This document shows positions 7,437-50,415 of a stretch of 64,000 bases of DNA, piece after piece. The notes beneath the pieces are model-generated. The model worked only from the letters and a program-made list of their open reading frames with translations, did not search any database and was not told where the DNA came from. A program made the position numbers and the translations under genes. The stretch spans positions 96,001 through 160,000 of the forward strand of contig CAVYSY010000046.1 in the NCBI GenBank assembly GCA_963771175.1, read 5' to 3'. How positions within the stretch are numbered: the stretch's first letter is position 1; every line of letters starts with the position of its first letter. The DNA comes from an uncultured delta proteobacterium. Its GTDB lineage: Bacteria; Myxococcota; Myxococcia; Myxococcales; Myxococcaceae.

Positions 7437-7451
7437 AAGGGCGATGGAGTC

Positions 7452-10512: not shown

Positions 10513-10578
10513 TCCGGCGGAGGAGCGGTGCGCCGAGGCTCGACAGCTCCCACGGGAGCCTGTTAGGGAGCGGCGTCC

Positions 10579-11322
10579 ATGCTCATCGATCTGCACGCGC
10601 ATTCCTACCTCTCGAAGGGCTGCAACCTGGAGCCGCGCGCGGTCCTGGACCGGGCCGCGATGTTCGGTCTGGACGGCGTGGCCTTCACCGAGACCAACAC
10701 CCAGGACGGCTGCGACGAGCTGTTCGACATCGGCGCGAAGTCCAAGGTGAAGGTCTTCGTGGGCCTGGAGCTGGTCACGGACCGGGGTCAGTACCTGTGC
10801 TTCTTCCCGAAGCCGGAGCTGGCGCCCGAGCCGGTGCAGATGTGGGGCAGCAACCGGGAGAAGCCCTGGAGCGCCGCCGAGTGTCTGCCCAAGGTGCGCT
10901 CGCTGGGCGCGGCCATCGTGGCGGCCCGTCCCTACGACCGGGACACGCCCAACCCGGCGATGGACTACGTCCGCTCGCTGAGCGGCCTGCTGTGCGCGGT
11001 GGAGGGCTACAACGCCCGGGTGAAGCAGACGTCCAACGACCTGGCCGTGGAGGCCGCCGAGGCCCTCAAGCTGCCGTGCACCGGTGGCAGTGATGCCCGC
11101 GGCTCGCTGGACGAGGTGGGCTACGGCGCCACCTGCTTCAAGAAGCCCATCCAGACGCAGGAGCAGCTCGTGGCCGCGCTGCTGGCCGGGGACTACTTCC
11201 CGGTGATGGCCGGAGAGCTGCCGCGCCTCACGCGCCCGGGCGAGGCCCAGGCGGGCCGGGGCGGTGGCGGCAAGCGCCGGGGCGGTGGCGGCGGTGGTGG
11301 TGGCGGGCGCCGTCGTCGCTAG
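10579..11322 (+). CDS. PHP-domain metallo-phosphoesterase with Gly/Arg-rich tail
   Basis: IDLHAHS, AFTE, GLEL, EGYNA, GGSDAR pattern of the PHP family. Confidence 0.85.
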   Translation: MLIDLHAHSYLSKGCNLEPRAVLDRAAMFGLDGVAFTETNTQDGCDELFDIGAKSKVKVFVGLELVTDRGQYLCFFPKPELAPEPVQMWGSNREKPWSAAECLPKVRSLGAAIVAARPYDRDTPNPAMDYVRSLSGLLCAVEGYNARVKQTSNDLAVEAAEALKLPCTGGSDARGSLDEVGYGATCFKKPIQTQEQLVAALLAGDYFPVMAGELPRLTRPGEAQAGRGGGGKRRGGGGGGGGGRRRR

Positions 11323-11359
11323 GCAACTCCGAAGTCCATTCCTTCAAGGACACCGTGTG

Positions 11360-11446
11360 TGGCCGGCCTCCCGGCCTCGCTTTTCAAAAACCTGTCCGAC
11401 TGTCGGACAGGTTTTTCCAGACTGAGTCCGGAGGGCCCCCTGTGCT
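11360..11446 (+). repeat. Palindromic intergenic repeat, copy 2 (core 11386-11416), between convergent genes
   Basis: Same 31-bp core as copy 1, with shared flanks GGCCGGCCTCCCGG..CGCTTTTC and GAC.GAG.CCGG.GGG. Confidence 0.9.
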
Positions 11447-11496
11447 CGGGTGGGGGTTGGACTCCCGCGGAGCTTGTTCCGGTGCCGTGGGGGCGC

Positions 11497-12237
11497 TCAT
11501 TTCGCCGCGGCGGGCGGCGCACCTTCCTCGACCCGGGTGACCAGGCCGTCGGTGATGAAGACCCGGCGCTTGCCGCCCGGGTAGATCCACTCCTGGTTCA
11601 CCTGCTGCCCGTCCAGCGTGCGACGGATGCTCTCCGGCGCGCCCCAGGACATCTCCACCGCCGCCTCCGGCATGTACTCGAGGACCTTCTTCTGCTTGAG
11701 GGCCTCCTGGAAGCGCGGCTGGAACCTGGCGATCCGCGGCGCCGGGTCGTGATCCAGCAGGTGCCGGTCCAGCTCCGCCAGGAAGTCCTCCCGCGTCTTG
11801 CTCATCGGCGGGAGCACGAGCACCACCGGCGGCCCCGGCGGCGCCCCCTCCACGTCCAGGTACACCCAAGGCAGCGTGCGCGGCGAGTACAGCAACCGCT
11901 CCACCATCACCATGGCCGTGGGGAACTCCACCTTCAGCACGCGCACCTTCGTGCCCGCCGGCATCAGCGCCTGCACCGCGCCAGGGTTGATGGGGTTGCC
12001 CTTGGTGTCGTTGATCAGCCGCACCTCGTCGGGCGGGTAGGGCGTCAGCAGCCGCTTGGAGGCATCCCCGAAGAACGGGGTGATGTAGCTGGAGGCCTTC
12101 AGGTAGCGCTCCGACGACGGGCCGCTGGTCAGATCGTGCTGGAGCTTCGTCCGGTCCTCCGGGCTGATCAGGGTCTGGCTCGCGCAACCGGTGGCCAGCG
12201 CCAGGGGGAGGACGAGCAGGGCGAGGAGTCGTTTCAT
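11497..12237 (-). CDS. Putative lipoprotein with C-terminal SmpA/BamE-like module
   Basis: MKRLLALLVLPLALATGC lipobox. C-terminal MPEAAVEMSWGAP...QEWIY...VFITDGLVTRV. Confidence 0.75.
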   Translation of the reverse strand: MKRLLALLVLPLALATGCASQTLISPEDRTKLQHDLTSGPSSERYLKASSYITPFFGDASKRLLTPYPPDEVRLINDTKGNPINPGAVQALMPAGTKVRVLKVEFPTAMVMVERLLYSPRTLPWVYLDVEGAPPGPPVVLVLPPMSKTREDFLAELDRHLLDHDPAPRIARFQPRFQEALKQKKVLEYMPEAAVEMSWGAPESIRRTLDGQQVNQEWIYPGGKRRVFITDGLVTRVEEGAPPAAAK

Positions 12238-12250
12238 GGGTGGGCCTCGG

Positions 12251-12850
12251 TCAGAAGGAGAAGGCGAAGGCTCGGGTGGTGATGAGGGGGGCGTCGCGCC
12301 CGCCGGAGACGTCCGCCACCAGTACCGCCTTCTTGCGCGTCTCCTCCACGATGCGTGGACCGCCCGCCTTGCCCAGGGCGTCGATGCCCTGGATGACGTG
12401 CGAGACGAGCAGCGCGACGCCTCCCAGCCCCCAGAACCAGCCGCCCACGGCGAGCCGGAAGACGCTGCTCACCACGATGATGGCCAGGTCCACCACGAGG
12501 AACAGGATGAAGCCGTCCTGGTCCCTCGCCACCAGGTGGCCCGTGCCGAAGCCGAGGAACAGCCCCAGCACCAGTGCGAGCACCTGCCGCGTCTCCGCGT
12601 CCACGCCGCCCCCAGTGTCCAGGGGCAGGGGAGTGCCCATGAGGGCGAAGCGTGTGGCGTCCGTCAGCTGCAGCGGGGGCGTCACGGAGGGTTTGAAGGT
12701 AGCCGCCAGCTCCAGCCCGTCCAGCAGCCGCGCGTGGCGGCTCTCCATGGAGTGGGCGAAGGAGACCGTCGGATCGGCGGGGGAGGCCGGCTCCGCGGGG
12801 GTGACGGACAGCAATGATGCGAGCAACAGGGAAACGACCATCGGGCGCAC
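12251..12850 (-). CDS. Hypothetical exported/membrane protein
   Basis: Signal-like N-terminus, three hydrophobic segments (LALVLGLFLGFGTGHL...), ends AFAFSF. Confidence 0.7.
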   Translation of the reverse strand: MRPMVVSLLLASLLSVTPAEPASPADPTVSFAHSMESRHARLLDGLELAATFKPSVTPPLQLTDATRFALMGTPLPLDTGGGVDAETRQVLALVLGLFLGFGTGHLVARDQDGFILFLVVDLAIIVVSSVFRLAVGGWFWGLGGVALLVSHVIQGIDALGKAGGPRIVEETRKKAVLVADVSGGRDAPLITTRAFAFSF

Positions 12851-12884
12851 CTCGGCGTCAAACGCTTGAGGGGCCCTTCCTAGC

Positions 12885-13088
12885 TTAGCGGGGGCTCGGC
12901 GTCAGCGACGCGTTGTCGCGTTCTCGCTGCCGCTGCACTCCACACCCCTTCAGGGTCGGGCAGATGGGGCCGCGGCCATCGGGATCAGGCACCAGTAGGA
13001 ATCGGCCCAGACCCCGGGCATCCACGAGCTCCGGATGGCCACACAGCACGCAACGACGGGGCGGACGCTTGGAGGGGGGGAATGGCAC
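12885..13088 (-). CDS. Small 4-Cys protein (67 aa), possible zinc-binding
   Basis: GTG at 13088 preceded by GGAGGAGAGG. Contains CVLC...CPTLKGC. Directly downstream of the FmdB-like gene. Confidence 0.5.
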   Translation of the reverse strand: MPFPPSKRPPRRCVLCGHPELVDARGLGRFLLVPDPDGRGPICPTLKGCGVQRQRERDNASLTPSPR

Positions 13089-13135
13089 GGAGCCAGTTTC
13101 CCTCTCCTCCTGCGCCCGCGCGAATTTTCCGCCGC

Positions 13136-13483
13136 TCAGCTCTTGGCGCCGGCCGCCGCGGTCGTGGTGCCCGAGCTGCTCGACGCGCTGGAGCCGCCCG
13201 AGTCCGAGGAGCCGCTGGAGCTGGTGCTCGACGTGCTGCTGGAGCTGGACGAGGACGAGGACGAGCTGCTGGAGCTGGACGAGCTCCCGTCCTTCTTGGT
13301 GGAGCTGTAGAGGTCCGAGTACCAGCCGCCGCCCTTGAGGACGAAGCTGGAGCGGCTGACGACCTTGCTCAGCGAGCCCTGCGCACCGCACGCGGAGCAG
13401 GTCTCGGGCGTCGGGTCGCTCACCTTCTGGAGGACGTCGATCGTCTTTCCACAGGACTGACAGGCGTATTCGTAGATGGGCAT
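13136..13483 (-). CDS. FmdB-family zinc-ribbon regulatory protein with Ser-rich tail
   Basis: MPIYEYACQSCG...CSACG...SFVLKGGGWYSDLY, followed by a poly-Ser tail. Confidence 0.92.
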   Translation of the reverse strand: MPIYEYACQSCGKTIDVLQKVSDPTPETCSACGAQGSLSKVVSRSSFVLKGGGWYSDLYSSTKKDGSSSSSSSSSSSSSSSSSTSSTSSSGSSDSGGSSASSSSGTTTAAAGAKS

Positions 13484-13507
13484 GACGGTGGCCTCTTCCT
13501 TCTCAGG

Positions 13508-14719
13508 TCATGGAGTGTGGGGGTTGTCCGAGGTCCGCTTGCGCAGCTCCCCGGCCAGTCCCAGGCGCTCGATGGCGCGGAGCACCAGCTCGGACGGGGC
13601 TCCGTGCTTGCGGCCCACCGCATCGGCGAGCGTGGCCACGGTGGTGGCCTCCGGCAGCTCGTCGCGCACCAGCACCTCGAGGTCCCGGCGGAGCATGTCC
13701 GTGAAACGCTTCTTGATTCCCAGGTCCATCAGGTACTTCTCGCGCCCGAGCAGATCCAACCGCTGGGTGAGGTGGCGCGAGGTGAGTGCCTCGCGACGGA
13801 AGCGCTCTCGCACCTCCTCGACCTCCTGGGAGATGCCCAGCTTCGCCTCGAGCTGCTTGAGCTCGGAGGGGCTGAGCCCGAGCGCCCAGCCGACCCGGCC
13901 GGCGGCGCCGCGGTGTTCGGTGTAGCCGGCGAGGAGGGCCTGGCGCTCACGGGATTCCATGGTCTCCATCAACCCGTGGGAGCGCAGCACTCCTTCCAGC
14001 TCCATCAGCGTCAGGTCGCCCCGGGCGCCGTTGTACTGGTTGGCCAGCGAGCCCAGCAGCGCGAAGCGGTGCTCGTGGGCCTCCAGCGCGGCCTCCAGCG
14101 TCTCCTTGCCCGAGGCGCGCGTCAGCTCCTGGATGCCCGTCTTGGGGGCATCCAGGCGGGTGAAGCGTCCGCGGGGCTTGGGCAGATCCCTCTTGAGGAA
14201 GCCAGGCGCCTCCTCGGCCTCCTCGAAGGGGGTCTCCTCCACGGCGGTGCGCTTGCGGGGGGCGATCCGCGCCTGGATCGTCTCGCCACTCGACTTCGCG
14301 GCGCGCTCCCGCTTCGCGGGCACCGGCTCCGGCACGGCGATTCGCGAGGCGGCCGGCGTGGCGAAGGTGGGCACGTCCGGAGAGGGGGCTGGCGCGGGGG
14401 GGCGCTTCTCCTCGTGCACCCGGGCCAGTTCCTGCACCACCTCGTAGTAGCCGCACTCCTGACGCTTCGCGGCGAGCTCCGGCGCCGTGCCCTTCAGCAC
14501 GTCCACCATCGCGAAGGGCCCGAGTGGCCGGGCTTGCGGCTCGGTGTCGGTCAAGGTGCGCACGCGGAAGTCGTCGGCCTCGGACAGCAGGGCGAGCGCC
14601 TCGCGGACCTCGGTGGGGGTTGCAGGCGATTTGGCTCGCCGGCAGTAGTCGGAGACGGCCACCGCCACGGGGGTGGGGACGTCATCGGGTTGCCGCTGTC
14701 TCTGCCAGGGAGTGTTCAT
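13508..14719 (-). CDS. Hypothetical protein (403 aa, helical, charged)
   Basis: Long intact ORF with typical codon bias, co-directional with the FmdB-like gene. Confidence 0.75.
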   Translation of the reverse strand: MNTPWQRQRQPDDVPTPVAVAVSDYCRRAKSPATPTEVREALALLSEADDFRVRTLTDTEPQARPLGPFAMVDVLKGTAPELAAKRQECGYYEVVQELARVHEEKRPPAPAPSPDVPTFATPAASRIAVPEPVPAKRERAAKSSGETIQARIAPRKRTAVEETPFEEAEEAPGFLKRDLPKPRGRFTRLDAPKTGIQELTRASGKETLEAALEAHEHRFALLGSLANQYNGARGDLTLMELEGVLRSHGLMETMESRERQALLAGYTEHRGAAGRVGWALGLSPSELKQLEAKLGISQEVEEVRERFRREALTSRHLTQRLDLLGREKYLMDLGIKKRFTDMLRRDLEVLVRDELPEATTVATLADAVGRKHGAPSELVLRAIERLGLAGELRKRTSDNPHTP

Positions 14720-30619: not shown

Positions 30620-31321
30620 GCGACATCCGCGTTCTCTTCGAGGGCGCGGGGCTGCTCGCGGTGGACAAGCCGGCGGGGATGCTCGTCATCCCCGGTCGCG
30701 GCGAGGGAAGCGGGCCGTCACTGCGCGAGGTGTTGGAGGCGAAGCTCGGGCGGAAGGTGTACGTGGTGCACCGGCTGGATCGGGACACCTCGGGGGTGAT
30801 GGTGTTCGCCCTGGATGCCGGAGAAGCACCGGACGCTGTCGATGGCCTTCGAGTCCGGGAAGGTGCGCAAGCGCTACCTGGCGCTGGTGGAGGGCCGGGT
30901 GGAGGCGCCGCGGGTGGTGGACGCGGCGCTGGTGCCGGCGCGCAAGGGGCGCATGCGGGTGGCGCGGCCGGGCGAGGAGGGGAAGCCCTCGCGCACGCGG
31001 GTGCGGCCGGTGGAGGTGTTCGCGGCGGCCTCGCTGGTGGAGGCCGAGCCCCTCACGGGCCGGACGCATCAGATCCGCGTGCACCTGCTGTCGGAGGGGC
31101 ACCCGTTGCTGGTGGATCACCAGTACGGGCGGGACGAGCCCCTGAAGGCGAAGGAGCTGGGCGGGGAAGGGGAGGAGGAGGTGCTGGCGCGGACGCCCCT
31201 GCACGCGGCGCGGCTGGAGTGGCCGGCGCTGCCGGGAGTGGAGGCGCGAGCGCTGGAGTCCCCCCTCCCGGCGGATATGGCGCGAGCCGTGGAACTGCTG
31301 CGCAAGGCGCCCTCGCTCTAG
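30616..31321 (+). CDS. RluA-family pseudouridine synthase; frameshift near 30820
   Basis: VDKPAG, VHRLDRDTSG, KRYLALV, TGRTHQIRVHL, LHA. Confidence 0.92.
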
Positions 31322-36408: not shown

Positions 36409-37173
36409 TGTCGGACATGAGCTCCAGGCCGATGATCGAGATCGTCGACCTGCACAAATCCTTCGGTGACTACACCGTCCTCAAGGGCATCGACCTCTCG
36501 GTGCCCGCGGGGAACACGTGCGTCATCCTCGGGGGCTCGGGCTCGGGCAAGACGGTGCTGATGAAGCACATGATCGGCCTGCTCAAGCCGGACAAGGGTC
36601 AGGTCATCATCGATGGGGAGGACGTCGTCCCCATGGGCCCCGAGGACCTGGAGCGGATGCGGCACAAGTTCGGCATGGTGTTCCAGGCCGCCGCGCTCTT
36701 CGACTCGATGGACCGTCTACGAGAACGTGGCCTTCCCGCTGCGCGAGCACAGCAAGCTGTCGGAGGAGGAGATCCAGAAGCTGGTTCGCTCGAAGCTGGA
36801 TCTCATGGGCCTGCCGCGCAGCGCGGAGAGGAAGTTCCCCGCGGACCTGTCCGGCGGCATGCGCAAGCGCGTGGGTCTGGCGCGTGCCATCGTGATGAAC
36901 CCGAAGATCGTCCTCTACGACGAGCCCACCACGGGCCTGGATCCCATCACCACGGACTACGTGGACGAGATGATCCTCGCGGCCCAGAAGGAATTGGGGA
37001 TCACCAGCGTGGTCATCAGCCACGACATCGCATCGGCCTTCAACGTCGCGGACCAGATCGCCTTCCTCAGCAAGGGCGTCATCCTGGAGCAGGGATCCCC
37101 GGAGCTGGTGCGCGCCTCGAAGCACCCGGCCGTGGAGGTCTTCATGCAGACCTGGTTCGGAAAGAACGATTAG
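36408..37173 (+). CDS. mlaF: MlaF-family ABC ATPase; frameshift near 36712
   Basis: GGSGSGKT, FQAAALFDSM, LSGGMRKRVGLARA, YDEPTTGLDP, ISHD. Confidence 0.93.
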
Positions 37174-38814: not shown

Positions 38815-39740
38815 ATGTCTCTTCTCGTCGTTGGCTCGGTCGCGCTGGACTCGGTGGAAACCCCCTTCGGTCTGAAGGAGGACGTCCTTGGTGGCTCGGC
38901 CACCTTCTTCTCCACCTCCGCGTCCTTCTTCACCCCGGCCAAGGTGGTGGCGGTGGTGGGCGAGGACTTCCCCCAGGCCCACCTGGACTTCCTGCGCGGC
39001 CGCGGCGTGGACCTCGAGGGCGTCACCCGGGAGAAGGGCCGCACCTTCCGCTGGAAGGGCCGCTACGGCTGGCAGCTCAACGAGGCCGCAGACGCTCGAC
39101 ACCCAGCTCAACGTCTTCCAGTCCTTCTCGCCCAAGCTCCCCGAGAGCTACCGCGACGCCCAGTTCGTCTTCCTCGGCAACATCCACCCGGAGCTCCAGT
39201 GCCAGGTGCTGGATCAGGTGCAAGAGCCCCAAGCTGGTCGCCGCCGACACGATGAACTTCTGGATCAACGGCAGCCGGCAGGCGCTCCTCAAGACGCTCA
39301 AGCGCGTCGACCTGCTCTTCGTCAACGACGCCGAGGCCCGCCAGCTCTCCGGCGAGCACAACATCGTCAAGGCCGCCCGCGCCATCCTGGCCATGGGCCC
39401 CCAGCGCGTGGTCATCAAGCGCGGCGAGTACGGCGCGCTGCTCTTCGATCAGGAGCACATCTTCGCCTGCCCGGCCTTCCCGCTGGCGGACGTGTTCGAC
39501 CCGACCGGCGCCGGGGACACCTTCGCCGGCGGCTTCATGGGCACCCTGGCCCAGAATGGCCAGATCGACTCCCAGGTGCTGCGCCGCGCGATGGTGATGG
39601 GCAGCGTGATGGCCTCCTTCACCGTGGAGAAGTTCAGCCTCGAGCGCCTGCGCGAGGTGACCGTCAAGGACATCCACGCCCGGTTCTCTGAGTTCAAGCG
39701 ACTCACGCACTTCGAGGACCTCGGCTCGCTGGAGGGCTGA
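38815..39740 (+). CDS. PfkB-family carbohydrate/nucleoside kinase; two frameshifts
   Basis: VVGSVALD, GGSA, VNDAEA, IKRGEYG, DPTGAGDTFAGG. Confidence 0.92.
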
Positions 39741-41783: not shown

Positions 41784-42632
41784 ATGGACGAACAGACCTT
41801 CATGAAGCTGATGCAGATCCTCCCCAAGTCCGCGCTATCCACGGCGGTGGGGATGGCCACGCGCCTGCCCGTGCCGGCGCCACTGCACCGGGCGGCCATC
41901 AAGGCCTTCGCGAAGTCCTACAACGTGGACGTCGCCGAGGCCGAGCACACCCTCGAGCACTACCCGACCTTCGCGCAGTTCTTCACCCGCGGCCTCAAGG
42001 CGGGCCTGCGTCCCGTGGAGCCGGGTGAGAAGGTCGTCGTGTCCCCGGTGGACGGCGCGGTGTCCCAGGTGGGCTACTCCGAGCACGGCCGTGTCATGCA
42101 GGCCAAGGGCATCCACTACACCGTGGACGAGCTGCTCGGGGACCCCCAGGCCGCGAAGCCCTTCCACGGCGGCGCCTGGACCACCATCTACCTGTCGCCC
42201 CGCGACTACCACCGCATCCACTCGCCGCTCGGCGGGAAGATCACCGGGTACTCGTACATCCCCGGCGAGTTCTGGCCCGTGAACGTGGCCTCGGTGAAGT
42301 ACAAGCAGGCGCTCTTCTGCGTGAACGAGCGGCTCGTCACCTACCTCGGACACCGCTGGCCGGCCAGTGCGCCGTGGTGAAGGTGGGCGCCACGTGCGTG
42401 GCGCGCATCAAGGCCGCCTATGACGACGTCGCTCACGCACACGGGCAAGCCGGGCAAGGTGCACCGCTACGACTCCGCCATTCCGGTGGAGAAGGGCGGG
42501 GAGCTGGGCCGCTTCGAGATGGGCTCCACCGTCATCCTGCTCTTCGAGCCGGGTCGCGTGCGCTGGGACGAGAGCCTCGCAGCCGGAGGCCGGTGGTGCG
42601 CATGGGCCGGCGCATCGGAGAGGTCGTCGTGA
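41784..42632 (+). CDS. psd: Phosphatidylserine decarboxylase proenzyme, frameshifted
   Basis: [49 protein letters not shown] (self-cleavage GST). Confidence 0.93.
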
Positions 42633-43926
42633 GTCAGAAGGTCAGTGGCGTCAAGGGGATGAACGACCTCCTCCCCGGTGAGGTCGAGGTGTGGCAGCAC
42701 CGTCGAGCGCACCGCCCGCGAGCTGTTCGGGCGCTTCGGCTACGGCGAGGTGCGCACCCCCATGGTCGAGGACACCGCGCTCTTCGTGCGCAGCGTGGGC
42801 GAGGAGACCGACATCGTCGGCAAGGAGATGTACACCTTCGAGGACAAGGGCGGCCGCAGCCTCGTCCCTGCGCCCCGAGGGCACCGCGCCGGCGGCGCGC
42901 GCGTACATCGAGCACTCCGTCGTCAACCAGGAGCCGCTCACGCGCTGGTTCTACATGGGCCCGATGTTCCGCTACGAGCGCATGAAGACGGGCGCTACCG
43001 CCAGTTCCACCAGATCGGCGCCGAGGCCTACGGCGCGCAGGAGCCCGCCGCAGGACGTCGAGGTGATGGACATGGTGGTGCAGTTCCTCGAGGCGCTGGG
43101 GCTCACCGACGTCTCGCTCAACCTCAACTCGCTCGGGGACGAGGCGTGCCGGCCCGTCTACCAGGCGAAGCTGGTGGAGCACCTGCGCGCCCACCGCGAG
43201 CGAGCTGTGCGCCGACTGCCAGGAGCGGCTGGATGCGCAACCCGCTGCGGGTGCTCGACTGCAAGAACCGAGCGCTGCCAGGAGATCGCCAGCGCCGCGC
43301 CCAACATCCTCGAGTTCCTGTGCGAGCCGTGCCGCGCGCACTTCGCCGAGGTGCAGCGCAAGCTGGACGCGCTCGGCATCCGGTACGTCGTCAACCCGCG
43401 CATCGTGCGCGGGCTCGACTACTACACGCGCACCACGTTCGAGTTCATCGCCTCGCACCCCGCGCTGGGCACCGCCAGCACCGTGGGCGGCGGCGGGCGC
43501 TATGACAAGCTGGTGAAGAGCCTGGGCGGGCCGGACGTGCCCGCGGTGGGCTTCGGCCTCGGGTTGGATCGGCTCTGCCTGCTGCTCAAGGAGAGCGGCC
43601 AGCAGTTCTCCCAGCCGGCGGACCTCTTCGTCGCCGTGGCGGACGAGGGCTCGGCGGATGCCGCCTTCGTGCTCGCCAGCACGCTGCGCCGCGAGGGCCT
43701 GCGCGTGGAGTTCGACACGCGCGGCGGCAGCCTCAAGAGCCAGATGAAGCGCGCCGACAAGGTGGGGGCCCGCTACACGCTGGTGCTCGGCCAGAACGAG
43801 CGCGAGAGCGGCAAGGCCCAGCTCAAGCCCATGGCGGGCGGAGAGCCCCTCGCCGTGGAGCTCGCCCACGTGGCCCGCACCTTGCGTGAAGCACTCTCCC
43901 GGTCCTCGACTCCCTCGGCCTCCTGA
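42629..43926 (+). CDS. hisS: Histidine--tRNA ligase, several apparent frameshifts
   Basis: [67 protein letters not shown]. Confidence 0.95.
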
Positions 43927-44042
43927 GCCGCGGGGAAGGGTGGATAGCCGGTAAAGCCCGCCAGACCCCTGACAATCCAAGGGGTTGGGCGGGCGGCGAT
44001 TTGGGGGTGTCGCCGAGGTGACGTTACAATCGTGCTCCAGTG

Positions 44043-44447
44043 ATGCCACAGGACTGGACGCACGCGGAGCGAGAGGGCCCGTGCTGGATTCCCATCCGGG
44101 GAGACAGCATGTGGCCCTCTTTGCGTTCGGGCGACGTGGCGCGCGTGGAGCCGCTGACGGAGTCTCCTCGGCCCGGCGAGGTGGTGGTCGCGCGCTTCGA
44201 CCATGCGCTGGTGGTGCACCGCGTGCGCCGCTGTGACGCGGACGCGTGCGTGCTGCGCGGGGACAACGTGCCGGCGGAGGATCCGCCCCTGCCTCGCGCG
44301 CGGCTGCTGGGGCGGGTGCGCTTCGTGCGTCGTGGGGGCGAGGTGCTCGCGCCGGCCCGGTGGGATCGGGGGCCCCTGCGTTGGGGCCGCTGGCGCGTGG
44401 TGGTGAAGCGCGGGCTGGCGGCGCTGCTCGGGCGGAGGCGCGCATGA
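44043..44447 (+). CDS. S24/S26-family signal-peptidase-like protein (Ser/His type, no N-terminal TM)
   Basis: GDSMWPSLRSGD (catalytic Ser box), PGEVVV, VVHRV, LRGDN, LLGRV. Confidence 0.8.
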   Translation: MPQDWTHAEREGPCWIPIRGDSMWPSLRSGDVARVEPLTESPRPGEVVVARFDHALVVHRVRRCDADACVLRGDNVPAEDPPLPRARLLGRVRFVRRGGEVLAPARWDRGPLRWGRWRVVVKRGLAALLGRRRA

Positions 44448-44731
44448 GCTTCCGAGCGGACAGCATCCCCCATCGGCGCGAGGGCGCGGACGGTCAGCGC
44501 TTCGGCGAGGACTTCGTGGTGTTGGATCCGGAAGGTCACATGCTTCGGGGTCTCAACGAGACGGCCGCGCGGGTCTGGGAGCTGGTCGACGGCCGGCGCA
44601 CCGCGCGCGACATCGCCGGAGTGGTGGCGAGCGAGTACGGCGTGGAAGTGGAGCGGGTGCTCGGGGACTGCCTGTCCTTCCTCGCGCGACTCGTGGGACA
44701 TGGGCTGTTGGACGCGGAGGTGCATCGATGA
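44444..44731 (+). CDS. PqqD-family RiPP recognition element (RRE), 95 aa
   Basis: EDFVVLD..GLNETAARVWELVDGRRTARDIAGVVASEYGVEVERVLGDCLSFLARLVGHGLL. ATGA overlap with the upstream gene. Confidence 0.92.
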   Translation: MSFRADSIPHRREGADGQRFGEDFVVLDPEGHMLRGLNETAARVWELVDGRRTARDIAGVVASEYGVEVERVLGDCLSFLARLVGHGLLDAEVHR

Positions 44732-45186
44732 GAGTGCTCGGGATGGCGTCTGTGCTCCTGCTGCTGGCCGCGTGCGACCAAGGCAGCGTCCCGAATCCTC
44801 CCGACTGGGGGTCGTGGAATGGCATCACTCCGCCGGTGCGGCCCACGCCGCCGCTGCCTCCGCTGGTGGGCGTGGCGGAGGTCGCCTACGTGCCCGAGGG
44901 CGCGCGCGGTCTGTCCGAGGTGACGTCGGTGGAGGTGCGGCTGCGCGTGAGTGGCATCGTCAACTCGGCGTCGGTGGACGCGGAGTTCCTCGCTCCCGGC
45001 CCCGCGGTGTACGAGCGGCGCACCCGCACGGTCGAGGCCCTCCCCACGGAGCAGCGTGAGCTCGTCTTCAGCCTGCCGGTGGCCGCCACCCAAATCCCCA
45101 TCCATGGCCTGAGTGGCTCCTGGGAGGTGCGCTTCTTCGTCGATGGCGCGCCCCTGACCACCACCGCCTTCACCCTGGAGCGCTGA
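44728..45186 (+). CDS. Putative lipoprotein with Ig-like domain
   Basis: VLLLLAAC lipobox, Pro-rich tether, beta-rich domain ending GSWEVRFFVDG..FTLE. ATGA overlap. Confidence 0.8.
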   Translation: MRVLGMASVLLLLAACDQGSVPNPPDWGSWNGITPPVRPTPPLPPLVGVAEVAYVPEGARGLSEVTSVEVRLRVSGIVNSASVDAEFLAPGPAVYERRTRTVEALPTEQRELVFSLPVAATQIPIHGLSGSWEVRFFVDGAPLTTTAFTLER

Positions 45187-45190
45187 CGCC

Positions 45191-48100
45191 ATGATCGCCC
45201 GACTGCTCGCGCTCCTGTTCCTGCTGCTGCCCGCCGCCGCGCTGGCCCAGAACGCGTGGACCGTCACGCCCGTCGACGGCTCCGCGGTGATGGGGGAGAT
45301 CTCCTCGCTCGTCTTCGAGGTGCGCAACGCCTCCACCAGCACCCGACCGATCAACGAGATCAGCCTCGCGGTGGATGGCACCGCCTATGACGTCGACGGT
45401 GGGGATGCTCCGGTGGGCTGGACGGTGAGCACCATTGATCGCAAGGAGCGCCGCATCACCTATTCGGCGAGTGGCTCCTGCGCTCCGGGGCCGTTGGGGA
45501 TCGCGCCGGGAGCCTCCGTGCGCTTCACGCTGCGGCTCGTGGGCCTCGCCGCCAACGCCGATGTCAACGACGCGCTGCTGGCCGGCAATGCCAGCAAGAA
45601 GGCGAGCGAGGCGCGCGACACCTGCTCCGGCACCACGTTCTCCGGAGACCCGACGCTGGCGCGCTGGAAGCGGGTGGGCCTGTCCGCGAGCCTCTCGGTG
45701 CTGCCGCGCACCCTCCAGCTCGGGGGCAACGTCACCGTGCAGCTCGTCGTGGTGAACCGCTCGCTGGTGAACCAGAGCGGCATCTCCCTGAGCGGCCCCG
45801 TGGTGGTGGGGAGCGCCACCTTCGACAAGACGGTGGTGAGCTTCTCGCCGGCCACGCTCTCGCTCGCGCCCGGGGCCACCGGGGCCTTCACCGGCAAGCT
45901 CCAGGCCACGGGGGAGGGGACCGCCTTCCTCCAGGCCTCGGCGGCCAACGCCGCGGTGAGCACCGCGCAGACCTCCTCGCTCCATGTGAACGTGAGCAGC
46001 TTCCCGGCGCTCATCGAGGCGCTGCCCTCCAGCATCGCCCCCGGCGATACGGTGACGGTCCGCCTCGTGGTGTCCAACCCCTCCAAGAGCACCTACCGGG
46101 ACGTCGTCCCCCGTGCTCTTGGATTCGTGGGAACGGCGACGCCCTCGATCCTGAGCGGCCCCACTCCCGCGAGCGCCACGTCGCTCAGCCCGGGCGCGTC
46201 CATCTCCTTCGTCTGGAAGTACCGCGTGGACGGGCCCATTGGCGCCACCTTCGCGTTCCAGGGCCAGGCGGATGCCACGCGCGACGGCGTGCCCCTCTCC
46301 ACGGGCCCGGTGGTCTCCTCTCAAGGGCGCATCGTGGAGCACCGGCTGGCCATCGAGCCCGCCTCCCTCATCTCCGGCGCGAGGAACAAGACGCTCCGCT
46401 ACACCCTCTACAATGGCGGCACGGTGGAGATCCGCTCCGTGAAGCTGCTCGTGCCGGACACGACCTTCTTCACCGTGTCGGGCACGCCCTTCGCCAACGA
46501 CTCCAGCGGGTGGAACACCAGCCCCAACAAGGGCTACACGTGGACGGCCCCCACTGGTGCGCCCGGCATCACTCCGGGCTCGCAGAAGACCTTCGCCATC
46601 GACTACGCCGCCATTGGCACCGTCGCCAGCGACACGGCCTTCAGCCACCAGTTGGAGCTGACGCAGGTGAGCGGCTCCACCACCAACGCCCTCCGCGTGG
46701 ATGCTCCGGTCACCGTCTTCGTCAACCGCGTGCTGCCCGAGGTCGAGTCCCTCGTGGCGCTCGCCGGGCCCCAGCGCAACACGCTCCTGTGGACCAACCC
46801 AGCCGATCATGACGGTGTGCTCGTGCTGCGCTCCGTGGGCTCCGCCCCCAGCACCGCTCCCGAGCCGGGTCGCCGCTATGTCTTGGGCGAGACGCTCGGC
46901 AACGCCACGGTGGTGTACTCGGACGAGCTGAGTGTGGCCTCCTCCTTCGCCGACACCGGGCTCACCGATGGCACCCCCTACGTCTACCGGGTCTACAACC
47001 ACGACGCGCTGTACCGGTACTCGCCGGGCAACGCGCCGCAGTCGCTCGGGTTGAAGTCGACTCCCACGGGCCGCGGGCCCGGCCAGCCGCTGTGGTGCTA
47101 CAGCGTCGGCTTCTCCTCGCTCCAGCAGCCCATCACCGAGCCGGGTCCCACCGGGGGCATCTTCACCTCCAACTCCTCGGGCCGCGTGACGGCCAGCCTG
47201 ACGAACACGTCCTCGCCCGAGCTCGACGGCAACGAGCGCTGGCGCCCGGTGCAGCTCCAGGGCGCCGTGCAGAGCCGCTTCCCGCTCGTCCCGCTGCACG
47301 GTCTTCCCGGGCAGTACATCCTCACCGGCGATCAGGCGGGCTACCCCTACGCCATCCGCGCCGAGACCGGAGAGCTCCTCTGGCGCGGCGCCTCGCTCGG
47401 CATCATCCAGTCCTTCCCCGTGGTGCAGCTCCACGACTACGCCGGCACCGCATACAAGGCGGCTCACCCCAATCGCGATCTGGCCTTCTTCGCCACCCGG
47501 TTGAGCACCGGCACCGACAACAAGGTGGTGGCGCTCGATGCCGCCACCGGCGTGCCCGTGTGGACGTACGCCCCGGGCGACCTCGGCATGGTGAGCGGGG
47601 GCATGTTGATCGACTACACGTACAACCGACTGTTCGTGGGCGCTCGCTCCAACGGAGGCTCCCTGGCCTCGCTGCGCGTCCTCGATAGCCTCACCGGCAC
47701 CGAGCTGGCCCGGCTGTCCCTTGGGGATATCGACTTCGGCCTCGTCCGCTATGGCTCGGCGCTCCTGGCGCTCGTGACGAACAGCGACGGCACCGTGTAC
47801 GGCGTCGACATGGCGAAGCTGACCGTGGCCTGGAGCGCGGCGGTGGCCACCCGCCCGTCGGCCTCGGTGCCCGCGTTCTCCCAATATGCCCGGCCGGTGA
47901 CGAGTGGCTTCGTCGTGAGCATCCTGGGCGCCACCGACGCGGAGGGCAGGGTGGAACGCTGGAACCTCACCACCACCTCCACGGGCACCACGGTGACGCG
48001 GACCTGGTCCACCCCCATCCCGAGCCCCTCCGGCTCCTTCTCGGCCACCCTGGGGGGCGTGCAGCGCCTCTATGTCGGCGGCAAGGACGAGAAGGTGCAC

Positions 48101-48253
48101 GAGCTGGAGATGGCCACCGGCGTGGATGGCAGGCAGATCTCCCTCCCTGGCGCTCTGGCCATCGGCACTCCGACAGTGGACACCTCCGTGTCGCGCCTCC
48201 ACGTGGGCACCCAGGATGGCCGCGTCTGTGCCTTCCAGGTGCCCTTCCCCTGA
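45191..48253 (+). CDS. Large exported protein (1020 aa): Ig-like repeats, FN3-like domain, C-terminal PQQ-like beta-propeller
   Basis: Signal MIARLLALLFLLLPAAALA. Thr/Ser/Val-rich strands, FADTGLTDGTPYVYRVY (FN3-like), and YAIRAETGELLWR, VALDAATGVPVWTY, ELEMATG, VGTQDGRV propeller motifs. Confidence 0.85.
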   Translation: MIARLLALLFLLLPAAALAQNAWTVTPVDGSAVMGEISSLVFEVRNASTSTRPINEISLAVDGTAYDVDGGDAPVGWTVSTIDRKERRITYSASGSCAPGPLGIAPGASVRFTLRLVGLAANADVNDALLAGNASKKASEARDTCSGTTFSGDPTLARWKRVGLSASLSVLPRTLQLGGNVTVQLVVVNRSLVNQSGISLSGPVVVGSATFDKTVVSFSPATLSLAPGATGAFTGKLQATGEGTAFLQASAANAAVSTAQTSSLHVNVSSFPALIEALPSSIAPGDTVTVRLVVSNPSKSTYRDVVPRALGFVGTATPSILSGPTPASATSLSPGASISFVWKYRVDGPIGATFAFQGQADATRDGVPLSTGPVVSSQGRIVEHRLAIEPASLISGARNKTLRYTLYNGGTVEIRSVKLLVPDTTFFTVSGTPFANDSSGWNTSPNKGYTWTAPTGAPGITPGSQKTFAIDYAAIGTVASDTAFSHQLELTQVSGSTTNALRVDAPVTVFVNRVLPEVESLVALAGPQRNTLLWTNPADHDGVLVLRSVGSAPSTAPEPGRRYVLGETLGNATVVYSDELSVASSFADTGLTDGTPYVYRVYNHDALYRYSPGNAPQSLGLKSTPTGRGPGQPLWCYSVGFSSLQQPITEPGPTGGIFTSNSSGRVTASLTNTSSPELDGNERWRPVQLQGAVQSRFPLVPLHGLPGQYILTGDQAGYPYAIRAETGELLWRGASLGIIQSFPVVQLHDYAGTAYKAAHPNRDLAFFATRLSTGTDNKVVALDAATGVPVWTYAPGDLGMVSGGMLIDYTYNRLFVGARSNGGSLASLRVLDSLTGTELARLSLGDIDFGLVRYGSALLALVTNSDGTVYGVDMAKLTVAWSAAVATRPSASVPAFSQYARPVTSGFVVSILGATDAEGRVERWNLTTTSTGTTVTRTWSTPIPSPSGSFSATLGGVQRLYVGGKDEKVHELEMATGVDGRQISLPGALAIGTPTVDTSVSRLHVGTQDGRVCAFQVPFP

Positions 48254-48260
48254 GCCCTCG

Positions 48261-48443
48261 ATGACGCGCGATCCCCAGCCACCTCCCGAGGGAGCTCCGC
48301 CCGCGCCGGCCGTGGCCTCGCGTGCGCGCGTCTACGAGCCCCCCGCGGTGCTCTGGGAACAGCCCTTCGTCGCGCTCGCGCAGGTGTCCTTCAACGGCGA
48401 CTACGGCTGCGAGATCCCCGGCTCGTGCGAGGATATTCCGTGA
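48261..48443 (+). CDS. Putative RiPP precursor peptide (60 aa)
   Basis: MTRDPQPPPEGAPPAPAVASRARVYEPPAVLWEQPFVALAQVSFNGDYGCEIPGSCEDIP. Has a YxxPxV motif and fills the gap between two co-directional genes. Confidence 0.7.
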   Translation: MTRDPQPPPEGAPPAPAVASRARVYEPPAVLWEQPFVALAQVSFNGDYGCEIPGSCEDIP

Positions 48444-48459
48444 GGAGGAGCCGCCGCCC

Positions 48460-49254
48460 GTGGTGACGCTGTCGCTGGCGGGCTGGACGGTGTCCCTGGA
48501 GTCCGAGGACACGGCGCTGGAGGAGCTGCTCGTCCGGGCGTGCCTCGCGTTCCGCACCTCCGAGCCGGCTCGGGCGCACGTCCGGGTGCTGCGTCCGGCG
48601 GTCTCCCGTCCGAGTCCCGCCGTGCGCTCCCTGCCGGAGATCCGCCCCGTCCCTGGTGGCGGTCAGCGGGTGGAGGGGGAGGACTACGTCGCGGACATCG
48701 CTCCCGAGGGCCGGAGCGCCACCGTGACGGGCGAGGGCCGCTTCCCCGTGGACACGGTGTTGAAGGTGATGCTCGCGGGCGAGCTGGCGAGGCGCGGGGG
48801 CCTGCTGGTGCACGGGGTGGCGGTGGAGCACCTCGGACGCGCTGCTCTGTGGACGGGCCCGTCCGGGGCGGGGAAGAGCACCCTGGCCGGGCTGTGGGCG
48901 AGGTCTGGCGGCACGGTGCTGACCGATGAGCTGGTGGCGGTGTGGCCCGAGGCGGGAGGCTGGCGCGCCGCCGGGACGCCGTGGAACGTGGGCATGCCTC
49001 GCGAGGCCTCGCTGCGCGCGGTGGGCCTCCTGGGCTGGGACTCGGGTTCGCGCTGGGAGCCCGTGGGGGCGGGGGAGGTGGCCCGGGTGCTGCTGCTCAA
49101 CGCGCTCCTGCCCGAGTCCTCCGCCGCCGGACGCCGCCATTTGATGGCTACGGCGGGCCGCCTGCTGGCGGAGGTGGAGACGGCCCGGCTCGTCTTCGCG
49201 CGAGATGCCTCCGCGGCGGACGTGGTGCGCGCGGGGCTGGAGCGCGGCTTCTAA
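48460..49254 (+). CDS. HPr-kinase-related P-loop protein
   Basis: GLLVHGVAV, ALWTGPSGAGKSTLA, VLTDELVAV, GTPW. GTG start preceded by AGGAGG. Confidence 0.82.
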   Translation: MVTLSLAGWTVSLESEDTALEELLVRACLAFRTSEPARAHVRVLRPAVSRPSPAVRSLPEIRPVPGGGQRVEGEDYVADIAPEGRSATVTGEGRFPVDTVLKVMLAGELARRGGLLVHGVAVEHLGRAALWTGPSGAGKSTLAGLWARSGGTVLTDELVAVWPEAGGWRAAGTPWNVGMPREASLRAVGLLGWDSGSRWEPVGAGEVARVLLLNALLPESSAAGRRHLMATAGRLLAEVETARLVFARDASAADVVRAGLERGF

Positions 49255-49364
49255 GTCATCCGAAGAGAGTCCGTGCAGGGGTGGCTGCCGGGTGCGACCT
49301 TCGGCAACCTGTACGATAAGTGTACAAGTTGGGGCGGAGCGCGGCCGGGAGGTCGGTGGGCCTC

Positions 49365-49447
49365 CGTGCACAGGGGACCCGCCGGGCTCGGTCTTCGCAA
49401 ACCTGTCCGACAGTCGGACAGGTTTTTGAAAAGCGAGACCGGGAGGT
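49365..49447 (-). repeat. Palindromic intergenic repeat, copy 3 (inverted; core ~49399-49427)
   Basis: Reverse complement reads CCTCCCGGTCTCGCTTTTCAAAAACCTGTCCGACTGTCGGACAGGTTTGCGAAGACCGAGCCCGGCGGGTCCCCTGTGC. Confidence 0.88.
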
Positions 49448-49512
49448 GGTTGGGTCTCTTCCAGGCCCGAGGAATTCCGCTGGTTCATGGTACGAGCGGG
49501 GGTGGAGCGTCG

Positions 49513-50415
49513 ATGAAGCCCTTCCTCACCGTTATCGCTGGACCCACCGCGTCCGGAAAGACCGCGATCGCCATCGAGCTTGCCCGCCGGCAGGGTGGGG
49601 AGATCGTCAGCGCGGACTCGCAGCAGGTGTATCGGTATTTCGACATCGGCACGGCGAAGCCCTCGGCGGAGGAGCTGGCCGCCGTGCCGCACCACCTCAT
49701 CTCCGTGGTGGACCCACTCGAGCCCTTCTCCGCCGCCGAGTACCAGCGTCGGGCTGACGCGGCCATCGAGGAGATCACCTCGCGGGGGAAGCCCGTCTTC
49801 GTGGTGGGCGGGACGGGGATGTACCTCCGCATCCTGCTACACGGCCTGGTGGAGGCGCCGGGGGCGGATCCCGAGCTGCGCGCCGAGCTGGAGGCGCTTG
49901 CCGCCGCCGAGGGCCGCGAGGCCGTGCACCGCAAGCTCGCCGAGGTGGATCCGGAGACCGCCGCGAAGCTTCCGTCCCAGGATCTGGTGCGCACCATCCG
50001 GGCGCTGGAGATCCACAAGCAGACGGGGAAGCCCGCCTCCGAGTTCCGCCGGGAGCACTCCTTCACCGAGGACCGCTATCCCTTCCGGATGTACGTGCTC
50101 TCGCCGCCGCGCGAGGTGCTGTACGGCACCATCGACACGCGCACGGCGGCCATGTTCCAGCGCGGGCTGGTGGACGAGGTACGGGAGCTGATCGCCCGGG
50201 GCTACGCGGAGGCGGCGCCCATGCGCAGCGTGGGCTACGTGCAGGCGAAGGCGGTGGTGGACGGGCGGCTCCCGGTGGAGGAGGCGATCCAGCAGGCGGC
50301 ACAGGAGACGCGCCGCTACGCCAAGCGGCAGCTCACGTGGTTCCGCAAGGAGGCGGGGGCCGTCTTCGTGGAGCCCCCATATGACACGCTGCTGAAGGGC
50401 ACCGGGCCCGGGTGA
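49513..50415 (+). CDS. miaA: tRNA dimethylallyltransferase
   Basis: IAGPTASGKT, SADSQQVY..DIGTAKP, VPHHLI, VGGTGMY, TRRYAKRQLTWFR. Confidence 0.97.
   Translation: MKPFLTVIAGPTASGKTAIAIELARRQGGEIVSADSQQVYRYFDIGTAKPSAEELAAVPHHLISVVDPLEPFSAAEYQRRADAAIEEITSRGKPVFVVGGTGMYLRILLHGLVEAPGADPELRAELEALAAAEGREAVHRKLAEVDPETAAKLPSQDLVRTIRALEIHKQTGKPASEFRREHSFTEDRYPFRMYVLSPPREVLYGTIDTRTAAMFQRGLVDEVRELIARGYAEAAPMRSVGYVQAKAVVDGRLPVEEAIQQAAQETRRYAKRQLTWFRKEAGAVFVEPPYDTLLKGTGPG

Follow-up and report, generated by a model that had tools for sequence, protein, structure and literature searches.

A conserved myxobacterial peptide cassette between hisS and miaA with likeness to linear polyphosphorylated peptide clusters

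What do six tightly packed genes between hisS and miaA make in a myxobacterium? They occupy positions 44043-49254 of a 64,000-nucleotide stretch of DNA from an uncultured member of the Myxococcaceae (the window). A first-pass annotation had proposed that they form a novel cassette in which a stand-alone RRE, an S26-like peptidase and a kinase mature a small peptide, in connection with cell-surface proteins. Judged by analogy, we consider them a myxobacterial variant of the cassettes that mature linear polyphosphorylated peptides (LPPs), with a probability of roughly 0.6. The LPP pathway is the only characterised one with such an enzyme logic.

LPPs have been described from Bacillota, with LppA/K/B/S/D/N of Paenibacillus alginolyticus (Popov et al., Nat Commun 2026, PMC13381572). 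In that pathway the leader is brought to a SipW-like peptidase by the RRE, which cleavage requires, mutation of the catalytic residues S29, H68 and D93 of LppS abolishes cleavage, and the HprK-like kinase adds one to four phosphates at core Ser3; the core cluster also includes the NTP transferase LppN and the MsbA-like export pump LppD (PMC13381572).

Gene order and conservation

The six genes are co-directional and as densely packed as first described, each at the position where it had been placed. ATGA overlaps at 44444 and 44728 and intergenic gaps of 4, 7 and 16 nt elsewhere can be read directly from the sequence. The flanking genes are hisS upstream (NCBIfam TIGR00442, 9e-90), whose assembled sequence shows frame changes, and miaA downstream (TIGR00174, 1.9e-84). 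The features of the locus are as follows:

44043..44447, + strand: S24/S26 peptidase, 134 aa (Pfam, conserved catalytic residues)
44444..44731, + strand: stand-alone PqqD/RRE, 95 aa (Pfam PqqD; ATGA overlap with the peptidase gene)
44728..45186, + strand: lipoprotein, 152 aa (lipobox LAAC; ATGA overlap with the PqqD gene)
45191..48253, + strand: exported propeller protein, 1020 aa (signal peptide, PQQ_2, AF2/Foldseek)
48261..48443, + strand: precursor peptide, 60 aa (orthologue alignment, codon pattern, tblastn)
48333..48389, + strand: leader motif block Tyr25-Ser43 (in-register alignment with the published LPP motif, by eye)
48378..48383, + strand: predicted cleavage site Ala40-Gln41 (Ala-Leu-Ala/Gln)
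48444..48452, + strand: Shine-Dalgarno-like GAGGAGGAG before the kinase start (read from the sequence)
48460..49254, + strand: HprK-like P-loop kinase, 264 aa, GTG start (invariant motifs, AF2 fold)

The same six genes stand in identical order in 24 of 29 related loci, drawn from 29 genomes, and 23 of these 24 follow hisS. Co-conservation across Myxococcota, to which the first-pass annotation had pointed as a check of its proposal, is thus borne out, and an order kept in so many loci is more than chance. Taken gene by gene, the lipoprotein, the large protein and, by tblastn, the peptide are each present in 27 of the 29 loci, so that the small ORF of the original proposal is found at orthologous loci too. 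The peptidase query had no match in five of the 29 (L042, L043, L044, L117 and L118). Within a narrower set, the large protein, the peptide and the kinase occur together at 17 of 17 loci. Locus L041 holds the six genes in the same order, with hisS and miaA unmatched in the 11.5 kb fetched; at L044 the PqqD, peptide and kinase genes are contiguous, without a giant protein in between. A scan of positions 43700-49700 gave zero promoter-like sites and a single terminator-like site, located within the large gene but on the minus strand, a number that shuffled sequences equal; at the 70% G+C of this genome such a scan is uninformative.

The precursor peptide and its predicted enzymes

The 60-aa product of the fifth gene, MTRDPQPPPEGAPPAPAVASRARVYEPPAVLWEQPFVALAQVSFNGDYGCEIPGSCEDIP, consists of a variable Pro-rich N-terminus, a conserved leader (Tyr25-Ala40) with YxxP starting at Tyr25, and a predicted core (Gln41-Pro60) in which Ser43 would be position 3. 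In an alignment of 22 orthologues, Y25, P28, W32 and A38 are invariant, S43 and the first Cys are conserved at 90% or more, and both Cys are kept; Ser43 is replaced, by Thr, in a single orthologue. The predicted core measures 20 residues here and 15 in most orthologues, and it varies even inside a genus, as seen at three same-genus loci. Within a block of 19 codons the third position varies most (14, 8 and 17 variable columns at codon positions 1, 2 and 3), and pairwise codon differences number 958 synonymous versus 840 nonsynonymous. On this sequence evidence the peptide gene is real, and its product appears to follow a RiPP pattern, namely a conserved leader and a variable core in which Ser43 and two Cys are maintained. 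A PDB sequence search with the peptide returned chance-level matches only (chlorophyll-binding proteins, E 0.67-0.83).

Sites of signal peptidase I carry small residues at -3 and -1. A cut between Ala40 and Gln41 would fit this rule and would fall at the same position as the cut in LppA, after residue -1. Two other ideas about the peptide were considered. That it is a Sec signal peptide was rejected, given a Pro-rich N-terminus without hydrophobic core and a peptidase without membrane anchor. A lanthionine-type route, with elimination of phospho-Ser followed by Cys addition, was suggested by the Ser-x-Cys present in most cores; it was set aside, the cassette having neither a lyase nor a cyclase.

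The 134-aa protein belongs to Pfam Peptidase_S24 (6.9e-11) and also resembles the NCBIfam models sigpep_I_arch (TIGR02228; 6.4e-7, 29.4 bits, under the cut-off of 51.85) and sod_Ni_protease (TIGR02754; 1.6e-7, 31.7 bits, under the cut-off of 63.25). Across an alignment of 32 sequences Ser22, His59 and Asp74 do not vary, a set that matches the catalytic S29, H68 and D93 of LppS. With the SipW/archaeal-type signal peptidase I and the Ni-SOD maturation protease, to which these two models refer, it shares the S24/S26 fold family, the GDN box and a His where bacterial-type enzymes have Lys; unlike them, it scores under the cut-offs, its translation has no N-terminal membrane segment to serve as an anchor, and its gene is coupled to an RRE gene. 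It is a soluble signal-peptidase-I-like serine enzyme, the predicted leader peptidase. Many database entries for this peptidase start at Met23 (112 aa) and so lose the catalytic Ser, although residues 15-22 are conserved.

The product of 44444..44731 matches Pfam PqqD (2.6e-17). In a phmmer search of PDB sequences it matches a lasso B1 protein as well as it matches LppB, with E 0.0011 for the lasso protein TbiB1 (5v1u_A) and E 0.0012 for 9x8z_B, the chain that Popov et al. name LppB; in their RRE tree the LPP proteins form a monophyletic clade (PMC13381572). Prediction of the RRE-peptide complex, a check that the first-pass annotation had suggested, gave an ipSAE of 0.51 versus 0.03 for the best control, with 100% contact agreement between runs and a partner pLDDT of at least 55. 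This value lends weak support to the pairing: 116 of 157 solved complexes reach the pass mark, as do 2 of 215 mismatched pairs, and the passes at an ipSAE of 0.60 or below comprise 18 of the 157 solved complexes and both of the mismatches. As like complexes have already been solved, the pass may reflect likeness only.

The last gene encodes an HprK-like protein, an assignment confirmed by motifs and by the predicted fold. H118, the P-loop S135-T141 and D156-E157 are invariant in 46 kinase sequences. The AF2 model (pLDDT 96.8, pTM 0.93) retrieves PEP carboxykinases (E 2.3e-6, TMq 0.53-0.57) and HprK/P (1knx_A, E 3.7e-5; 1jb1, TMt 0.50) with Foldseek. The match to NCBIfam HprK_rel_A (TIGR04352) is weak, covering 53 residues around the P-loop (1.1e-5, 24.7 bits versus a cut-off of 200). 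By analogy, the protein is probably a peptide Ser kinase. Records under the names Myxococcus xanthus, Corallococcus, Pyxidicoccus and Archangium contain orthologues of it. Homologues of the kinase carry the precomputed Pfam family PF27840.

Relation to LPP clusters and to other peptide systems

Like LPP clusters, the cassette combines a discrete RRE encoded beside the peptidase (PqqD, ATGA overlap), a SipW-like peptidase with a short N-terminus and an invariant Ser/His/Asp set (TIGR02228 under cut-off), an HprK-like kinase recognised by motifs and fold, and a YxxP leader, and it is free of a macrolactam cyclase. Set against the LPP motif YxxPxVLxHQxIxFETxxS, the leader has the same residue, in register, at 6 of the motif's 11 specified positions (Y, P, V, L, Q and S; by eye, without a statistic), and part of this likeness is generic, since it extends to these six positions only and YxxPx(L/V/I) is common to lasso leaders. 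At the Ile position of the motif the leader has a hydrophobic Phe, and where the motif has H, F, E and T it reads E, A, L and A. The predicted cleavage site and the Ser at core position 3 lie at the same distances from Tyr as in the LPP leader.

The differences concern both the enzymes and the peptide. An NTP transferase (LppN) is absent from the cassette and from the neighbouring genes, and an MsbA-like export pump (LppD) from the cassette; the cassette includes genes for a lipoprotein and a giant propeller protein; the residues before the cut would be Ala-x-Ala, versus Phe-Glu-Thr in LPP; the core of the window family has 15-20 residues with two Cys, versus 45 residues in LppA; and the similarity of the RRE to LppB is marginal (E 0.0012). 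The distribution differs as well. In the published work, LPPs are called restricted to Bacillota and their spread in Bacilli is patchy, whereas the window cassette has a fixed position next to hisS at 23 of the 29 Myxococcota loci; Supplementary Data 1 of that work lists four Myxococcota rows among the LppS homologues (SSN clusters 3, 11 and 14, LppS itself being in cluster 1), none of them from Myxococcaceae (PMC13381572). The claim of a novel cassette is thus narrowed, and the refuting case named in the first-pass annotation, a match to a characterised cassette, applies in part: a characterised analogue exists in LPP, and an identical cassette was not matched. What survives of the first proposal is its core, a minimal pathway of RRE, S26 peptidase and kinase acting on the small ORF, with the YxxP leader, the Ser/His/Asp residues and the HprK motifs and fold in its favour; that the pathway is of a wholly new kind does not hold.

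No publication about this cassette in Myxococcota turned up in our literature search. Searches on SynChlorMet, HprK-related and HPr-rel-A returned nothing, and one on GeoRSP only an unrelated elephant-tracking paper. The searchable text of the RRE-Finder paper (PMC7470986) and of a 2025 RRE paper (PMC12710340) contains no mention of a kinase, S24, signal peptidase or propeller.

Other RiPP classes fit less well. A Pfam scan of the six genes and of 20 neighbouring ORFs (27.9-62.5 kb) found no radical SAM, cyclase or nucleotidyltransferase gene, and no transporter in the cassette, in agreement with the first reading of the locus. The closest ABC_tran fragment is some 7 kb upstream; six ORFs stand between it and the cassette, and five of these have unrelated Pfam families. 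The genome's PF14907 genes sit on a separate contig and apart from both HprK-like genes. We rejected the lasso class because neither an Asn-synthetase-like macrolactam cyclase nor a transglutaminase-like B2 peptidase is encoded by these genes and ORFs; matches to the curated lasso PqqD models are likewise far below their cut-offs. Paeninodin-type clusters (PMC13381572) share three features with the cassette, namely a kinase of the HprK type, a discrete PqqD/RRE and a [Y/W]xxP motif in the leader; unlike them, the cassette and about 15 kb around it hold no lasso cyclase or B2 cysteine peptidase, and the predicted leader peptidase is a serine enzyme. The pairing of HprK-like and PqqD proteins also recurs in the SynChlorMet (ScmC/ScmD/ScmE/ScmF), GeoRSP and HprK-related-kinase A/B models, which we know from their NCBIfam names. 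The window proteins fall far below the SynChlorMet cut-offs (TIGR04248-04251; ScmC 17.8 bits versus 125, ScmD 21.2 versus 100) and no radical SAM gene (ScmE/ScmF) is present in the locus, which excludes membership; the kinase score given above likewise excludes the HprK-related kinase A system (TIGR04352).

For an LPP-like cassette, binding, phosphorylation site, cleavage site and order of steps can be proposed by analogy with LppB, LppK and LppS. The stand-alone RRE would bind the precursor through the leader block that begins at Tyr25 (YxxP), and the kinase, using ATP, would phosphorylate Ser43. The RRE would then present the Ala38-Leu39-Ala40/Gln41 junction to the Ser22/His59/Asp74 peptidase, and cleavage would free the core of 20 residues (15 in most orthologues), whose two Cys could close a loop. 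The lipoprotein and the 1020-aa protein would be exported separately, as conserved extracytoplasmic partners. We infer that the product may be a phospho- or disulfide peptide and that it may serve in signalling.

Surface proteins and alternative readings

The lipoprotein carries the lipobox LAAC in its translation; it has no match in Pfam or NCBIfam, and the Atlas gave unnamed clusters only. The large protein begins with a signal peptide, read from the translation, followed by some 600 uncharacterised residues and a C-terminal eight-bladed propeller. Residues 679-794 match Pfam PQQ_2 (2.5e-8), and the AF2 model of residues 583-1020 (pLDDT 83.4, pTM 0.84) retrieves an eight-bladed designer propeller (6tjg, E 3e-14, TMt 0.84) and BamB (4hdj, E 5.2e-14, TMt 0.70) with Foldseek. 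Residues ~630-1020 thus share the fold of BamB-like eight-bladed propellers; unlike BamB, the propeller here forms the C-terminal domain of a secreted 1020-aa protein; identity to BamB is 16-20%, and there is no hint of a part in the BAM complex. Of the Ig/FN3/propeller architecture originally assigned to this protein, the propeller is upheld by model and Foldseek and the Ig/FN3 label is not: the N-terminal ~600 residues have no Pfam match, and the Atlas similarities of the first 576 residues to fn3/Big_13/CARDB clusters (0.75-0.82) are at the level of leads. Co-conservation, which extends to a paralogous cassette of the same genome, supports the proposed link to cell-surface proteins. That cassette repeats the design, with PqqD, giant proteins of the Big_13 and FG-GAP types, a peptide of 46 aa that carries YxxP and two Cys, an HprK-like gene and a fusion of S24 with GNAT.

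This link invites another reading, in which the three enzymes serve a surface complex and the peptide is a ligand, cofactor, covalent adduct or assembly factor for the propeller protein and the lipoprotein, not a free natural product. A giant exported protein is encoded between the PqqD and peptide genes in 27 of the 29 loci, and no exporter gene is present in the window cassette. Giants recur in the paralogous family (L045, L046 and L051; Big_13/FG-GAP proteins of 1211+646, 1957 and 1826 aa), where at L046 the PqqD and giant genes overlap by 4 nt, and among 12 more distant Myxococcota loci, 5 have Big_13/FG-GAP or propeller giants next to the kinase and a sixth has a C25-peptidase giant there. 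However, L044 lacks a giant between its contiguous PqqD, peptide and kinase genes, the Bacillota LPP clusters function without such a protein (PMC13381572), no computed result puts the peptide in contact with the propeller, and adjacency is weak evidence for binding. We hold this reading to be unlikely, and it is just as doubtful that the processed (phospho)peptide is a dedicated ligand or cofactor of the giant propeller, the cassette being an envelope module of peptide plus receptor and not an antibiotic-type pathway. If it were true, maturation enzymes paired with giant propeller/FG-GAP/Ig proteins would form a widespread, undescribed class of RiPP-dependent surface systems, represented by two paralogous myxobacterial families and the more distant Myxococcota loci.

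The more distant loci also raise the question of whether the cassette is the reduced remnant of a radical-SAM peptide cassette, incomplete or decaying, whose class-defining cross-linking enzyme is either gone or supplied from elsewhere. A radical SAM/SPASM gene directly adjoins the HprK-like gene in 7 of the 12, as in the SynChlorMet/GeoRSP models and in contrast to the window, and at L083 such a gene accompanies a peptide much like that of the window (YEPP, W, F and two Cys), so the ancestral chemistry may not have been phosphorylation alone; an NTP_transf_5 gene occurs in one more distant relative. Yet the genome itself (81.66% complete) has no close homologue, its best matches showing 26-27% identity (E 2e-6), and the catalytic residues and the peptide are constrained across several genera in the cassette without radical SAM, which does not fit decay and makes a remnant improbable. 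That the six genes are neighbours without common function, packed by chance between housekeeping genes, is disfavoured and hardly credible: the flanks hisS and miaA are indeed housekeeping genes and promoter/terminator consensus marks out no unit, but the two ATGA overlaps and short gaps, the order kept in 24 of 29 loci, its presence at L041 without hisS or miaA in the fetched 11.5 kb and the paralogous cassette with the same parts elsewhere in the genome all speak against it.

As an LPP-like pathway, this conserved and vertically kept Myxococcaceae variant would extend the LPP enzyme logic to another phylum. Its short core and minimal enzyme set, with no nucleotidyltransferase and no radical SAM, would offer a simple case for the effect of peptide phosphorylation. 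Myxococcus xanthus is commonly manipulated genetically, and since it, Corallococcus, Pyxidicoccus and Archangium are culturable, knock-outs and mass spectrometry are practical. The published work on Bacillota leaves the final product and role of LPPs open (PMC13381572); the steady link to giant surface propeller proteins provides a concrete hypothesis on biological role, beyond what that work offered.

Genomic setting of the cassette

The six genes between hisS (upstream) and miaA (downstream) are co-directional over 44043-49254, and the coordinates, overlaps and gaps reported in the first-pass annotation are confirmed: reading of the sequence gives two ATGA overlaps and gaps of 4, 7 and 16 nt. 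The host genome is 9.8 Mb in size, with ~70% G+C. The P-loop protein gene is preceded by GAGGAGGAG. The lipoprotein, the peptide and the P-loop protein (hereafter kinase) had no match in a Pfam search.

Genes of the cassette (window coordinates)
44043-44447, plus strand, S24/S26-type peptidase, 134 aa
44444-44731, plus strand, PqqD protein (RiPP recognition element, RRE), 95 aa
44728-45186, plus strand, lipoprotein, 152 aa, lipobox LAAC
45191-48253, plus strand, exported protein with signal peptide, 1020 aa
48261-48443, plus strand, small ORF (peptide), 60 aa
48460-49254, plus strand, P-loop protein (HprK-like kinase), 264 aa, GTG start

Proteins recorded under Archangium and Vitiosangium share 83-95% identity with the kinase, and those recorded under Myxococcus, Corallococcus, Pyxidicoccus and Citreicoccus share 55-69%; all of them carry the annotation hypothetical. 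We fetched ~11 kb around the kinase orthologue from 29 genomes. The full cassette, with its order kept, was found in 24 of the 29 loci, 23 of them with hisS immediately 5′; 21 of these hisS-linked loci also have miaA 3′ of the cassette inside the fetched stretch. At L041 the six genes are present, and hisS and miaA are unmatched in the fetched stretch. With the window peptidase as query, the peptidase is unmatched at loci L042, L117, L043 and L044, the last of which has contiguous PqqD, peptide and kinase genes; at L118 the kinase is the sole cassette gene detected. Among 301 sampled Myxococcota genomes, 168 have a hit to the kinase-family profile at E 1e-8 or lower; within the window's own family the figure is 92 of 115. 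At one locus (L038, genome G084, ~5051-8075) the counterpart of the 1020-aa protein is split into three matching pieces, each in a different frame, perhaps owing to a frameshift in the gene or to a sequencing error in the record.

Frame changes also occur in the window itself. Compared with a same-genus orthologue, hisS (42629-43926) has residues 14-37, 38 to ~92 and 92-434 in three frames, so that the reading frame of this essential gene changes twice. These changes and the apparently cut-short genes listed below are likely due to indel errors of the assembly, whose completeness is 81.66%.

Apparently cut-short genes in the window
30815-31318, part of a pseudouridine synthase
36613-37170, ABC_tran fragment
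39252-39737, C-terminal part of a PfkB protein

The peptide and its putative maturation enzymes

The small ORF is a genuine gene, shaped like a RiPP precursor. Across 22 aligned orthologues there is no change at Tyr25, Pro28, Trp32 or Ala38 and hardly any in the rest of residues 29-41, and Ser43 is found in 21/22, with Thr in the remaining one. Two cysteines are kept, the other C-terminal positions and the Pro-rich N-terminus are variable, and the core differs even among three same-genus genomes. Within the conserved block of 19 codons, variation is greatest at third positions (17 variable columns, against 14 at first and 8 at second positions), with 958 synonymous versus 840 nonsynonymous pairwise codon differences.

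In the peptidase family, Ser22 (GDSMWP), His59 (VHRV) and Asp74 (GDN) are invariant among 32 sequences. SipW, archaeal and ER-type signal peptidases are marked by a His in place of the Lys of bacterial-type signal peptidases and LexA; the NCBIfam match to sigpep_I_arch (6.4e-7, below cut-off) agrees weakly with this assignment. The translation is devoid of an N-terminal membrane segment. Many public gene calls for this peptidase (112-aa entries) begin at Met23, just past the catalytic Ser of GDSMWP (cf. window 44043-44111), and would thus describe an inactive enzyme; the conservation of residues 15-22 favours the longer form.

His118, the GPSGAGKST P-loop and Asp156-Glu157 are invariant in the kinase family. 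In the PDB, the AF2 model (pLDDT 96.8) resembles both PEP carboxykinases and HprK/P, as expected of an HprK fold. Among PDB sequences, the PqqD protein is about equally close to the lasso protein TbiB1 (E 0.0011) and chain 9x8z_B (E 0.0012). The predicted RRE-peptide complex scored 0.51 versus 0.03 for the best control, rated as weak support; since similar complexes have already been solved, this pass may reflect likeness only.

Likeness to linear polyphosphorylated peptides

The linear polyphosphorylated peptides (LPPs) of Bacillota were described by Popov et al. (Nat Commun 2026; PMC13381572). In these systems, the kinase LppK adds one to four phosphates to core Ser3, the SipW-like peptidase LppS (catalytic S29/H68/D93) cuts after residue -1 and requires the RRE protein LppB, and the precursor carries the motif YxxPxVLxHQxIxFETxxS (PMC13381572). 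By eye, Tyr25-Ser43 of the window peptide aligns gap-free with the motif as quoted there: identities fall at Y, P, V, L, Q and the closing S, and the motif's Ile position is taken by Phe. Because the two are in register, cleavage is predicted to follow Ala-Leu-Ala, which fits the classical -3/-1 form of a signal-peptidase site, with Ser43 as core residue 3. This likeness of leaders is suggestive, and is partly the generic [Y/W]xxPx(L/V/I) common to lasso leaders.

On the basis of the LPP experiments and of the conservation, the RRE would bind the leader via the block starting at Tyr25, the kinase would phosphorylate Ser43, and the soluble Ser/His/Asp peptidase would receive the Ala40/Gln41 junction from the RRE, releasing a 20-residue core with two Cys.

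Several features set the window cassette apart from LPP systems: it has neither an NTP transferase nor an exporter, the core is short and has two Cys, a lipoprotein and a giant secreted propeller protein are included, and the locus is a fixed, housekeeping one. Two adjacent PF14907 NTP_transf_5 genes lie elsewhere in the same genome (contig C57, 30717-34007; L097 and L098), away from both HprK-like genes. The paper states that LPPs are confined to Bacillota; in its Supplementary Data 1, four rows of the LppS homologue table come from Myxococcota and fall into minor network clusters, one of them adjoining an HprK-PqqD fusion and none belonging to Myxococcaceae, and the sections drawn on here do not discuss them (PMC13381572).

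Relatives of the cassette and giant surface proteins

A second cassette is present on another contig of the same genome (L045, contig C32, 573000-587000; genes 5502-13596), and its design is found again in other genomes.

Genes of the second cassette (within 5502-13596)
minus strand, PqqD gene
minus strand, Big_13 protein, 1211 aa
minus strand, FG-GAP propeller protein, 646 aa
7198-7338, minus strand, 46-aa ORF with YxxP motif and two C-terminal Cys
minus strand, HprK-like gene
minus strand, S24 peptidase fused to a GNAT domain (leader-peptidase-like plus acetyltransferase)
minus strand, EamA transporter
minus strand, metallo-beta-lactamase-fold protein

Twelve more distant Myxococcota loci were sampled (L083-L094; genomes G139, G130, G189, G154, G143, G135, G193, G125, G150, G223, G320 and G225). 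A radical SAM/SPASM gene immediately adjoins the kinase gene in 7/12, an S24 peptidase profile matches in 7/12, PqqD in 3/12 (fused to the kinase in L092), and NTP_transf_5 in one. Giants of the Big_13/FG-GAP or propeller kind lie nearby in 5/12, and a 1325-aa C25-peptidase giant in 1/12. L083, a radical SAM locus, encodes a peptide closely resembling that of the window. No protein of the 12 loci reached the curated SynChlorMet or GeoRSP cut-offs, and no close homologue of the distant-locus radical SAM enzyme was found in the window's own genome, at 81.66% completeness. Given these paralogous and distant relatives, the window cassette belongs, as a branch lacking radical SAM, to a wider and so far unnamed family, which has its enzyme logic in common with LPP.

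The main rival reading is that of peptide-maturation enzymes tied functionally to giant surface proteins; the steady presence of such proteins in both myxobacterial families suggests this tie. The last ~400 residues of the 1020-aa protein (45191-48253) are modelled as an eight-bladed BamB-like propeller (AF2 pLDDT 83.4; 6tjg TMt 0.84; BamB E 5e-14). Among 20 orthologues Cys636, at the first propeller strand, is nearly invariant and Cys1013, at the last, is invariant; a disulfide between them could close the ring.

The minimal pathway of RRE, signal-peptidase-like enzyme and kinase proposed at first pass is partly supported, as a peptide-maturation pathway with a logic already known from LPP. 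What is new is the first myxobacterial form of this logic, which has a minimal enzyme set and is coupled to surface proteins.
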